Origin: Hormiphora californensis
Lineage: Eukaryota > Animalia > Ctenophora
Assembly: GCA_020137815.1 (NCBI GenBank)
Contig: CM035357.1
Location: 5,766,001-5,830,000, forward strand
Direction: 5' to 3'
DNA length: 64,000 nucleotides
The notes below the pieces were generated by a model that did not search any database, was not told the DNA's origin, and saw only the letters and a list, made by a program, of their open reading frames with translations. Positions 54,901 through 61,717 of this stretch are shown piece by piece. Within the stretch, counting starts at the first letter, position 1. Each line of letters opens with the position of its first letter. Position numbers and translations under genes: made by a program.

Positions 54901-57900
54901 AAGAGAGAGAGAGAGAGAGGGAGAGAGAGAGAGAGAGAGAGAGAAAGATTTAATGCATTTCATATGCATCCCTATTCCCTAGCTAGCCTTTCAGGAATGA
55001 CCAAATACCCGGAAGACAAATCACATTTTCTCAGTATCAAGTTGTCCCAAAAGTCTGCAATTCTCGCTACTGAAACTTGAACAACCAGTGATCTAACAGA
55101 TATGACGTCATACACATGTGACGTCACATATTGACCCTCTCTCACCCTGCATGTAGTTACCCCTCCCCTCTAGTAACCCACCCCTCGCCCTCTAGTAACC
55201 CACCCCTCGCCCTCTAGTTACCTTGAATGTGTTGGGCTGGGTTACATCGAATACAAGGACACAGCAATCGGCTCCTCGGTAAAAAGCAACACCTGAGAAA
55301 GTACAGTTAGTCAATAAGTCTATGAACTTGAACTTGCTAAATCCTGCACAGTGGAAGGTGTGACTTTTCTCTCCCTATAACAGTGGCTGGGGGGTTACTT
55401 AGCACTCTATATTGGCCATTGCATGTTAAACGCTTGGTGTCGCTTAGCTTGAAACGATAAACCACACCCATTCGTCTTGAAACCGATCAATCATCAAATG
55501 ATTTAGGGTCCCAGTATGTTCCATAAAATCCCTAAAAATTCCTCACCTAAACTCTGGAATCGTTCCTGTCCCGCTGTATCCCAGATCTGCATGGTCACAA
55601 GTCTGTCATCCACAACTACCTCCTTCGTCAGGAAGTCAGCACCAATTGTCGCTTTGTACTGGTTACTGAACTTCTTCTGTACGTACTGGTTCATCAGGGA
55701 TGTCTTACCAACACTGAACAAGAGAGAAAGGTGGTGGTAAAACTTGGAAAATAGAGGGGGTGAAACAGAGGGGAAGATGGAGGGGAGGGGTGGTAAAACT
55801 TGGGGGAAGATGGGGGGGGGGGGGTTCCAATCTGTTTTTTTGTATTTTTTGTACGGGCCATACAAAAAATGTCCAAAATTCTTGTTTTTGTCGAATTCTA
55901 AACCCCTATGCCTTTTTACAAAAGGCATCCGGGTGAATGCCTTCGGCATTCACCGGGCGGGGAAAAAATTTTTGGGGGAAAAAAATCCTGCCACTAAATC
56001 GGGGTGCCACTAAATCGGGGTCCGACGACCGACTGTATATGCTAAAATAATGGATTTTCTAATTCTATCATACCCTAACCACCTGTCGCTCCTCTCTAAA
56101 ATAATGGCCAATCAAATTAAGATGAGAAATTTAGCACATCACCATTCACCCCTCCTTATTAACATACTATAAAAGAACCCCCGAAAACCCGCAGATTAAA
56201 AGACGCAAAGATGTTGTTTTTCATTGCTTTAATCGTTTCTGCGGCGGCCTTCGACAAGGCCGTCCTCAAATCTGGACTTCAATCTGCCAAAGGCCAGATT
56301 GAACTTTTCAACAATTGGGTTAATGTTGAACACAAACATTACTCCGGGGCTGAGAAGAGTTTTAGGTAAGACAACTGTATACAGTTAGGGCTCTCTCTCA
56401 TTGATATCAAAACTAGATAAAACAATTTACAATCCTGTTTGGATTCTCATGCCTCTCGTTATCCTGTTCTAATCCTGTTCTAATGCTGTTCTAATCCTGT
56501 TCTAATCCTGTTCTTGTCCTGTTCTAATCCCCTCCCACTTCCCCAGGTTCCGAATCTTCCGGGGACATCTCAAGGAGATTGTAGAGATCAATGATGCTCA
56601 GGATGATTATGAACTAGATGCCAACTTCATGTCTGGTCTTACTGATGAAGAGCAACAGCAGTGGTACGATCTGGTTTAGAGTTTAGAACTAATCACTCCA
56701 CTGATTTCCAAGAGAGTATTTGTACTACTACTCCTGACAAATAGAACTACTTCCGTAACCCTCGCTTCGCACCGGACCGCGTAATCTGACAAATAATCCC
56801 CCAGGTACGGTATTAACATCACGGCCTTCCCTGCCGAACCAGCTGAAGAGGAGCCCGCCCCTCTGCTGTCCAACGTGCCCAGTAGTGGATCCAAACTGTG
56901 GCGAGAGGAGGGCAAGATCACCGCTGTTAAGAATCAGGGAGGATGTGGGTCTTGTTGGGCTTTTGCTGGAACTGCCGCTTTTGAGGGACACTACGCTATT
57001 AAGTCTGGTGGTCTGAAGAGGTTCGCTGAGCAGGAGCCTCTTGACTGTACTTATGAAGGTGAGAAACTACTGAACAAAGAGTGTAGTATACCATGATAAT
57101 CACCGCACATCACTGCGCTGGCAAGCGCAAAGGTTGCCATTCCCCCTTCCCCAAAAGCGCTGCCAGAAACGCAGTTATACGTTTTATGGGTGTTTGGCTG
57201 AAAAACCGGATTTCGAAAGGCTAAAGCGTCGCTCCCTTTAATCGGATTGACTTGAAATTTGGAATGTATACCCCGCTTTTACTTAAAATTTCAAGTCTCT
57301 ATCTCATCTGGGACGGAAGTTACAGACTGGTCCCATTTGCTGAAGATTCAGTGTAACAGGCACACGCATACGCGCATGCATAGGATAGACGCTTTTTATA
57401 AACCATATTCACGCCAAACGAAAAGAGATAGAGGCTTCTCGTTTTCGCAGCTGGTAGATCTACTGGATGTGTGTGCATTAGTCGAGGAGTCGTCCCTTTT
57501 CATTGCCAGGAACGTCCTACAGAACGTCTTAAAGTCGTCATTTTTCAGACTCTGACCAAACTTCTTTGAGCTCAATTTACACCCTTAAAACGGATTCTAA
57601 TCGAAAAACGAAGACTATATATATATATATATATCATGGAAAGAGAATTGTCTAAACTTTCAGAAACTATATCGCGAATTTTCAAAACTGCGTGTACAAG
57701 GGTCTTAAAACGCGTCTGAAGTGTTATGACTGTTTAAAAATATGACGATACGGGTTTTTTCGCCACAGCGGACTCAAATCTTATCCAATCGATCTCAAAC
57801 TTGGTCAGTATCTTCACCTAGCTAGGTAATCCCGATGATATTACGTCATAATTATGACGTCATAACGTCGTGACGTCATTTCATGGCGTCAAAAATGAAA

Positions 57901-60900: not shown

Positions 60901-61717
60901 TTCTTGGTTGGAAAATGAAAATTAAGATTCGGGAAAATTTCTCGCTTAGAGTTTGCGATTCGAGAAAATTTTATCGGTAAGAAATTGCCATTCGGGGAAA
61001 TTTCTCGCTTAAAGTTTGCGATTCGAGAAAATCTTATCGGTAAGAAATTGCGATTCGGGGAAATTTCTCGCTTAGAAATTACGATTCGAGAAATTTTTAT
61101 CGGTAAGAAATTGCTATTCGATAAAAGTTTCTTGGTTAGAAATTTCGATTTGGAAAGATTTTCTCGCTTAGAAATTGCGAACCCCCCCCCCCCCCCCCCC
61201 CCCGGGAAGATGGAGGGGATGGGGGTAAATTTGGAGGATGAGGGAGTTATGTCAGTATCAAGTATGAGGGGGAAGGGAATTGGGAATGACCAAGTAAAGC
61301 TAAAGCTGTTATAATAATAGTAGAACACGGGGCCAGGGCCCAGGGGGGGGCCGATCGATGAATTAATTTCGAGTGATTGGATCGGTATATTTTAATCAGT
61401 GGAAAGGTGTTACAGATTGGAAGGAGGTAGATAAGATGAAATATATGGCGATCATCGGGGGTGAAAATCAGGTGATTTTGCAATATATCATTTCCCATCT
61501 TTGTGCGAACAAGCAAGGCAAATAACTAATAAGAATCTGCACATGTGTGAGAGAAGATATATTTTAATTCAGCAGTGAATGAAATACTGATTAATTCGGA
61601 TGCCTCTCAGTTTGAAGCAACACCTTAGTTACTTTTCCAACCTGACAGGTGATTGTTCACTTACCCACTGTCTCCCAGAATGATAACCTTTAGCAAAACC
61701 TTCTTTCTTGACGCCAT
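51906..61717 (-). CDS. RAB7A: Ras-related protein Rab7
   Basis: Exons 61717-61665, 55713-55547, 55292-55222, 52606-52499, 52130-51906. [66 protein letters not shown]-terminal CSC. Confidence 0.97.
56050..56180 (+). promoter_or_regulatory. Putative cathepsin promoter (CCAAT + TATA), duplicated at 60068-60188
   Basis: GGCCAATC at ~56106 and TATAAAAGAACCC at 56168; a diverged copy downstream of the gene keeps both boxes. Confidence 0.7.
56211..59637 (+). CDS. Papain-family (C1A, cathepsin L-like) cysteine protease with I29 prodomain and two C-terminal ShKT domains; nested antisense in Rab7 intron 1
   Basis: Exons 56211-56365, 56547-56663, 56805-57058, 58337-58480, 58647-58911, 59051-59160, 59321-59637 join in frame. 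Signal peptide, ERFNIN-like [48 protein letters not shown]. ShKT domains [17 protein letters not shown]...[12 protein letters not shown] and [17 protein letters not shown]...[12 protein letters not shown]. Confidence 0.95.
57110..58188 (-). mobile_element. Helentron/HINE-like element in cathepsin intron 3
   Basis: TCACTGCGCTGGCAAGCGCAAAGGTTGCC end; ~70-bp inverted repeat 57980-58050 vs 58117-58188 containing AAAGGTTGCC. Body homologous to 23667-25770. Confidence 0.78.

Follow-up and report, generated by a model that had tools for sequence, protein, structure and literature searches.

A cathepsin gene between transposon ends in intron 1 of Rab7 in the ctenophore Hormiphora californensis, and its possible origins

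A cathepsin gene nested in Rab7

We analyzed a 64,000-nt stretch of the Hormiphora californensis genome (assembly GCA_020137815.1, contig CM035357.1, positions 5,766,001 to 5,830,000; hereafter the window), in which intron 1 of Rab7 harbors a complete cathepsin gene enclosed by ends of a family of transposons capped with runs of G. The host gene is on the minus strand, and its intron 1 (61664-55714) spans 5951 nt; the cathepsin gene runs on the plus strand, antisense to Rab7. The cathepsin reading frame is open over 453 amino acids, all of its introns are GT-AG, and the catalytic Cys, His and Asn motifs are all intact in the spliced protein. The domains found are I29 (scored on the related proteins P0001 and P0007), Peptidase_C1 and two ShK-like domains, and the predicted product is a papain-family (C1A) cathepsin with ShK-like domains. 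RNA contigs of related sequence splice exons 1-2 and 3-4-5 at the predicted borders; these contigs (sequencing run X7) differ from the window copy by ~3-13% per exon and support the exon borders, not expression of the nested copy. Because six introns, a promoter and a poly(A) signal are retained, the gene appears to have arrived as DNA, as a previous sequence-only reading of this locus had held, and the retained introns and promoter rule out retroposition. The coordinates of these features are given in Table 1. We also observed a G38 run in intron 5 (58936-58973) with no element around it and, by eye, a small element with 19-bp inverted ends (59785-59958) located 3' of the poly(A) signal.

The block containing the gene begins with G13-TTCC at 55812 (end A) and terminates with GAA-C22 at 61203, and the same 8-mer, GGGAAGAT, adjoins both outer sides, as the sequence-only reading had reported. 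Its further statement that removal of the block restores a local repeat was also confirmed: intron 1 minus the block and one 8-mer measures 551 nt, and 17 consecutive bases over the join repeat the unit at 55770. The duplication is readable as 8, 9 or 10 bp since GG follows. Two caveats raised earlier were borne out, namely that the target itself is repetitive, with a third GGGAAGAT at 55771, and that ~500 bp of the right arm is gone at the right tip. Given the local base composition, the chance of the 8-mer match at the block is ~3e-4. Among all pairs of G-runs and C-runs in the window, exact flanking 8-mers were found in 3 of 232 (6 of 232 with at most one mismatch); two of the three exact pairs bound plain elements whose inner inverted repeats measure 13 and 20 bp, and the third is the cathepsin block. 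The frequency of lone G- or C-runs in the window qualifies this frame, as does end A, which resembles the family over only ~90 bp, at 77%.

Another explanation is that the gene is an older nested gene that received independent insertions on each side, the 8-mer match being supplied by the local repeat. The repetitive target with its extra GGGAAGAT would suit this explanation, as would the right tip, where the inner repeat of the family is matched for 3 bases only (a weak point of the frame), and the occurrence of long G- or C-runs without elements, such as that at 58936. However, both ends stand at the same phase of the repeat, exact matches are confined to the three pairs above, of which the other two are real elements, the nested copy diverges from its paralog about as much as the Rab7 alleles diverge from each other, and the gene is not nested in Mnemiopsis leidyi, as far as one copy shows. 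We consider independent insertions distinctly improbable; the evidence supports one insertion site framed by ends of the family, and it is highly probable that this single transposon site is where the gene came in, as DNA.

The right part of the block is a second element of the same family, B, which is 80.9% identical over 983 columns to the corresponding part of an intact, cargo-free copy elsewhere in the window (27412-28429). The alignment of B to the intact copy continues to the last array unit, from which the sequence passes directly to the tip, with an overlap of 2 bp at the join. The flank of its left end at 60189, AAGAACCC, has no matching partner, in agreement with the sequence-only reading. 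That reading overlooked a second copy of the cathepsin promoter (P2) at 60068-60188. P2 is 92% identical to the first promoter (P1) over 93 bp (60068-60159 to 56050-56142), the match resumes through TATAAAAGAACCC, and the left end of B begins right at TATAAAAGAACCC. The cargo is one unit of ~4.0 kb, from promoter to promoter. The repetition of the promoter just before B therefore suggests that the cargo derives from a parent locus with tandem copies, the second of which was likely struck at the TATA box. P2 carries 3 diagnostic bases of a paralog described below, which P1 does not have. Two near-identical models of the cathepsin (P0003, P0004) are present in Pleurobrachia, so that tandem or allelic copies may predate H. 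californensis.

Table 1. Coordinates and properties of the features discussed (window numbering unless an accession is given)
Feature	Position	Strand	Remarks
Rab7 exon 2	55547..55713	-	AG acceptor 55715-55714; translated reading
Degenerate intronic repeat, upstream unit	55770..55802	+	first 17 bases recur across rebuilt empty site
Left target-site duplication GGGAAGAT	55804..55811	+	
Outer left end (A)	55812..55903	+	G13 (55812-55824), TTCCAA, short subterminal arm
High-copy hairpin repeat fragment	55904..55973	.	from sequence; very high summed contig depth
One end of TA-flanked small inverted-repeat element	55974..56038	.	83% over 42 bp to 63545-63586
Cathepsin promoter P1 (putative, from motifs)	56040..56210	+	CCAAT 56108, TATAAAA 56168
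Cathepsin, 7 exons	56211-56365, 56547-56663, 56805-57058, 58337-58480, 58647-58911, 59051-59160, 59321-59637	+	frame check
Repeat insertion in cathepsin intron 3	57109..58184	.	similar to 23666-25779
Predicted poly(A) signal AATAAA	59691..59696	+	sequence motif
Second promoter copy P2	60068..60188	+	stops at TATA box where B starts
Inner element B: left end, arm, 31/32-bp array	60189..61180	+	colinear with 27412-28429
Right tip, GAA + C22	61179..61203	+	meets last array unit at 2-bp GA overlap
Right target-site duplication GGGAAGAT	61204..61211	+	
Rab7 coding exon 1	61665..61717	-	translated reading
Cargo-free reference copy	27412..28929	+	G7...C7; 20-bp perfect terminal inverted repeat; exact AGTAGGGC both sides
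P. bachei contigs with family end	AVPN01020316.1, AVPN01013591.1		compared by eye; one shared junction

The family of G-capped elements

The cargo-free copy and its exact 8-bp duplication AGTAGGGC, both noted in the sequence-only reading, were confirmed. In the window, elements with G caps and 8-bp duplications form a real class, comprising at least three families that have 10-bp subterminal repeats in common and whose caps range in size from 7 to 22. Two further elements (35275-36115 and 39547-40170) have unrelated inner sequences and 10-bp subterminal repeats; the flanking 8-bp duplication is exact at the former and matches at 7 of 8 positions at the latter. Lone capped ends without a partner occur at 16331, 44525, 29707 and 31616, and the first two of these have G9-10 TTAAATT in common and different flanks. 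The window also contains long near-perfect inverted repeats at 37435-39003, 40347-41553 and 24020-24840 (arms of 766, 374 and 333 bp), which are likely young foldback elements.

An assignment of the family to MULE or FB4-type elements fails, as the duplication is 8 bp in both of the two unambiguous capped elements and the inverted repeats are short, whereas such elements have duplications of 9-10 bp and inverted repeats of hundreds of bp. A hAT assignment was dropped on the termini. The features of the family are closer to those of Merlin elements, described in the sections of PMC8101967 drawn on here as having 5'-GG termini, an 8-bp duplication, internal tandem repeats and terminal inverted repeats of 24-462 bp. 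In the window, the termini start with GG, inner tandem repeats are present, and the duplication (8 or 9 bp in Merlin) is exactly 8 bp at 27412 and 35275. The perfect inverted repeat of the intact copy measures 20 bp and extends further if mismatches are allowed; in the two other capped elements the inverted repeats are at least 27-28 bp. Unlike Merlin as described there (PMC8101967), the caps are runs of at least seven G and variable in size. The same sections report Merlin transposases in ctenophores (PMC8101967). On these sequence features, the family is likely Merlin-like.

The family end was also seen beside a Merlin frame in Pleurobrachia bachei. In 2 of 11 contig records in the part of the PMC8101967 supplement consulted, the family end opens the record, 16 bp before a Merlin frame that has no N-terminus. 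The comparison extended over the first ~400 letters of the records, the far side of the Merlin frames, which may matter for the superfamily assignment, lying outside it. The tip of the element points toward the Merlin frame, and the end stands outside that frame. Most simply, this layout would represent a family element inserted into a Merlin gene, and it may also represent a composite in which the transposase lies between two modules. These records therefore indicate that the family is common to Pleurobrachia, not that Merlin moves it. Pattern scans of metagenome and viral contigs for the family end gave no match and no autonomous copy, and a pattern scan of metagenome contigs for the right Rab7 flank also gave no match.

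Copies in sequencing runs and relatives

We compared short-read contigs from five of nine runs (X1, X2, X5, X6 and X7), representing two individuals and one RNA metagenome; X3, X4, X8 and X9 lie outside this comparison, as does the stretch from exon 5 to the array, including P2. On the left side the comparison covers 24 of 921 loose ends and 15 of 43 joints, among which high-copy repeats dominate. Contig depth is no copy number, and the dose readings below are rough; depth is uneven in X5 and X6, too much so in X5 for a dose estimate, and missing cover was not counted as evidence. In X2, contigs identical to the window cathepsin have depths of 35 and 39, and a variant that is 2-4% different in exons and promoter has a depth of 81-91, while Rab7 sites total 81-93 and their alleles 38-57. 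In X6, a window-like contig has a depth of 109, compared with 114.5 for one Rab7 haplotype, and variant contigs have depths of 178-362. Read in this rough way, the depths suggest that each individual likely carries the nested copy on one haplotype, beside a separate parent copy, and that the presence of the nested copy is likely polymorphic. Window-type contigs stand at roughly one dose in each of the two individuals, which argues against many copies of the block.

The variant provides information on the direction of change. Among the 11 coding positions listed (40 of the 225 rows of differences between copies being covered), it agrees with the metatranscriptome protein P0001 at 3 of 3 amino-acid differences, and therefore the nested copy carries the derived state. 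Paralog contigs align to the window from 56040, the start of P1, and one variant contig extends 5' of this position into unlike sequence. The intron-3 insertion is missing in at least one other cathepsin copy, as indicated by a joint from 57108 to 58185 in run X5. An X5 contig joins the left arm of B directly to 61266, and its letters are as at 60299 and absent from the intact copy; a second individual thus has B in the same intron, with another right-side deletion. A contig of the second X2 haplotype starts 31 letters before the first compared place; judged by its length, and as a weak hint, this overhang is better explained by a C-run at the same site than by an empty one. At 55683-55727, contigs of three runs show another haplotype that repeats the Rab7 exon-2 acceptor region plus 15 letters; short tandem repeats next to splice sites are frequent in the window.

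These data bear on the possibility of an assembly artefact, in which a cathepsin locus was misjoined to Rab7 through repeats. The junctions were not seen in contigs, and both ends are repeats with homopolymers, as such an artefact might produce. However, a misjoin would not make an 8-bp duplication, the independent individual has B joined to the right flank of Rab7, and error-free contigs cover both that flank and cathepsin stretches specific to the window. Of all the explanations weighed here, an artefact is the least probable.

The same contigs can be compared with a history in which the block was once a larger Pack element with at least two tandem cathepsins, B later entered the second promoter, and the second gene was lost in a deletion reaching from B to the outer right tip. 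The second promoter copy is cut exactly at B, approximately three haploid doses are found in X2 (39 + 90), and the right-side deletions are haplotype-specific; the other haplotype could then keep two copies, with no need of an outside parent. Against this history, the upstream edge of the two-dose variant is of the P1 type from 56040 and differs from the sequence upstream of P2, and in each individual the window-like contigs occur near one dose, with a separate higher-dose variant alongside. The deletion required would also be much longer. We regard this history as improbable.

Exon 5 of the cathepsin finds proteins of P. bachei and M. leidyi, and the spliced protein is 79% identical to that of P. 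bachei, 68% to that of M. leidyi and 90% to P0001. In Mnemiopsis, Rab7 (ACHWQZ_G004935) is located on a contig of 14,925,576 bp and the cathepsin (ACHWQZ_G016904, of this subfamily and the only Mnemiopsis sequence among 16 hits) on a contig of 14,606,143 bp. The nesting is not common to Mnemiopsis, as far as one cathepsin copy shows, since the comparison rests on separate contigs and on the locus tags of that copy. The Rab7 and cathepsin searches returned no Pleurobrachia genomic position and no Bolinopsis cathepsin. The sequence-only reading had proposed that sister species or other haplotypes be examined for a site without the gene; the comparison with Mnemiopsis agrees with its account, and the contigs listed yielded no empty or cargo-free allele.

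Origin of the block and comparison with known systems

We tentatively favor the hypothesis that break repair copied the whole cathepsin gene, at the DNA level, from a parent locus into an element likely already resident at the site. A non-autonomous element would have inserted at GGGAAGAT, as the duplication suggests, and this resident element might later have broken or excised. Repair would then have been templated on family copy B, sited in the TATA box of the second cathepsin promoter at the parent locus, and copying could have run on through ~4.3 kb of neighboring DNA with the whole first gene. The copied DNA would have been attached to what remained of the resident left end, a stub of 90 bp, and the right part would since have decayed, by deletions that differ between haplotypes. 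If so, the element is the landing site, not the vehicle.

Several lines of evidence favor repair capture. The duplication is exact at the outer ends and the repeat phase is restored; an inner left end of the same orientation, with an unpaired flank, follows directly after P2; and the left end is a short stub followed by truncated scraps of repeats, with a 2-bp overlap on the right. In addition, the nested copy at one dose stands beside a two-dose variant that differs by 2-4%, has other upstream DNA and carries P0001-like residues, and Rab7 and the cathepsin are on separate contigs in Mnemiopsis. Finally, most single-copy animal Pack-TIR elements (host DNA between the ends of terminal-inverted-repeat transposons) fit gap filling, according to the parts of PMC8277862 drawn on here.

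Other observations weigh against this hypothesis. The filler of ~4.3 kb (5.3 kb with B) is far over the 224-bp median cargo given for animal Pack-TIRs (PMC8277862), and B and the tip look like parts of a single element, in line with composite transposition. The 2-bp overlap at the right join is within chance. The left junction is absent among the joints listed, the right junction lies in a repeat skipped in the comparison, and the contigs displayed include no allele without the cargo. The depth pattern, uneven in X5 and X6, also fits two near-identical copies on the other haplotype, and the likely parent copy elsewhere is not placed.

The second hypothesis is composite (end-bypass) transposition, in which the parent locus had a lone left end A upstream and a full element B downstream, the left end of A and the right end of B were paired by transposase and moved together as a 5.9-kb unit, and, as part of the same history, the right arm of B was deleted after arrival in Rab7 intron 1. 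Such macrotransposition was reportedly treated by Huang and Dooner in 2008. Under this hypothesis, the duplication adjoins the two outer ends and the inner flank of B is unpaired as expected; moreover, B is colinear with the intact copy, lone capped ends are frequent in the window, and the X5 junction of the B arm to 61266 demonstrates right-side deletions after insertion. Precedents are available from maize (PMC4270019) and the Drosophila Ising TE (PMC6431247), as far as the excerpts used describe them. However, the block contains two left ends and one right tip, without a right end of A, and an extra deletion is needed to explain a right end without its arm. A second copy of the block with another duplication was not seen, although no genome-wide search was made, and the X2 overhang hints at a C-run on the other haplotype. 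We regard composite transposition as possible but doubtful, and repair capture as slightly ahead of it.

The claims of the sequence-only reading fared differently. Its proposal of capture by template switching or ectopic repair stands as the leading, tentative mechanism, with composite transposition explaining the same anatomy. The claim that a transposon carried the gene into Rab7 is unsupported as worded, because under repair capture the element would be a landing site and no second copy of the block with another duplication was seen. The block is probably no longer mobile, because its right end lacks the ~500-bp arm.

The locus offers a footprint that can be scanned for, namely a whole gene enclosed by G7+ ... 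C7+ ends and flanked by an 8-bp duplication. Within the window, such a scan, also suggested by the sequence-only reading, recovered the three exact pairs described above. An apparent second nested gene, a single-exon secreted SRCR-domain gene (22403-23302, minus strand) between Nup98-96 exons on the same strand, had no capped ends with a duplication around it in the window. The insertion appears young, and other haplotypes may keep the state before it, which would decide between repair and composite transposition. Although this is a single locus, it makes the origin of nested genes in ctenophores directly testable. Ctenophores have numerous genes nested in introns, and transposons are often their neighbors. 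In the sections of PMC8527503 drawn on here, H. californensis is reported to have 2357 nested genes, 1109 of them flanked by a transposon on one side and 176 on both sides; that account gives counts, without target duplications or an insertion mechanism. A broader proposal is that Merlin-like, poly-G-capped elements pair the ends of two copies, move whole genes with their promoters into introns, as in this block, which would still be segregating in the population, and account for a real share of the thousands of nested genes of comb jellies; we consider this unlikely. In the partial library available, our searches turned up neither a ctenophore nested gene reported to be framed by a transposon and marked by a duplication, nor a Merlin element carrying a host gene.

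The block works like a Pack-TIR element with a whole-gene cargo, Merlin-like ends, a nested antisense position and a likely polymorphic state. Like the animal Pack-TIRs of Tan et al. (2021, PMC8277862, from the parts consulted, as for the statements on that paper that follow), it contains non-transposon host DNA between two ends of terminal-inverted-repeat transposons, the right one merely a tip, with a target-site duplication (GGGAAGAT) round the whole unit; it is also apparently single-copy, with a short breakpoint overlap and a parent copy likely present. A cargo-free ortholog was reported for 91 of 97 primate single-copy Pack-TIRs (PMC8277862). Unlike animal Pack-TIRs, the block has a cargo of ~4.3 kb with a whole seven-exon gene, promoter and poly(A) signal, contains a second family element inside asymmetric, decayed ends, and results in a gene nested in antisense, not in a chimeric transcript (PMC8277862). 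Few of the animal Pack-TIRs described have a cargo that is multi-exon, whole and intact; the main near-whole-gene case is Ssk-FB4 of Drosophila melanogaster (PMC8277862). Like the block, Ssk-FB4 has a near-whole intron-containing gene plus upstream region in a repeat-rich non-autonomous element, and it is polymorphic, as the block likely is; its own features are multiple copies, distinct 9-10-bp duplications, inverted repeats of ~700 bp, a lost 3' end and expression (PMC8277862). The maize Ac composite insertions (PMC4270019) and the foldback-framed Ising TE of Drosophila (PMC6431247) resemble the block in having outer ends from two elements and one new 8-bp duplication. As described in the excerpts used, these cases of alternative transposition had progenitor alleles in hand, whereas the block is known without a progenitor and with the inner right end of A missing.

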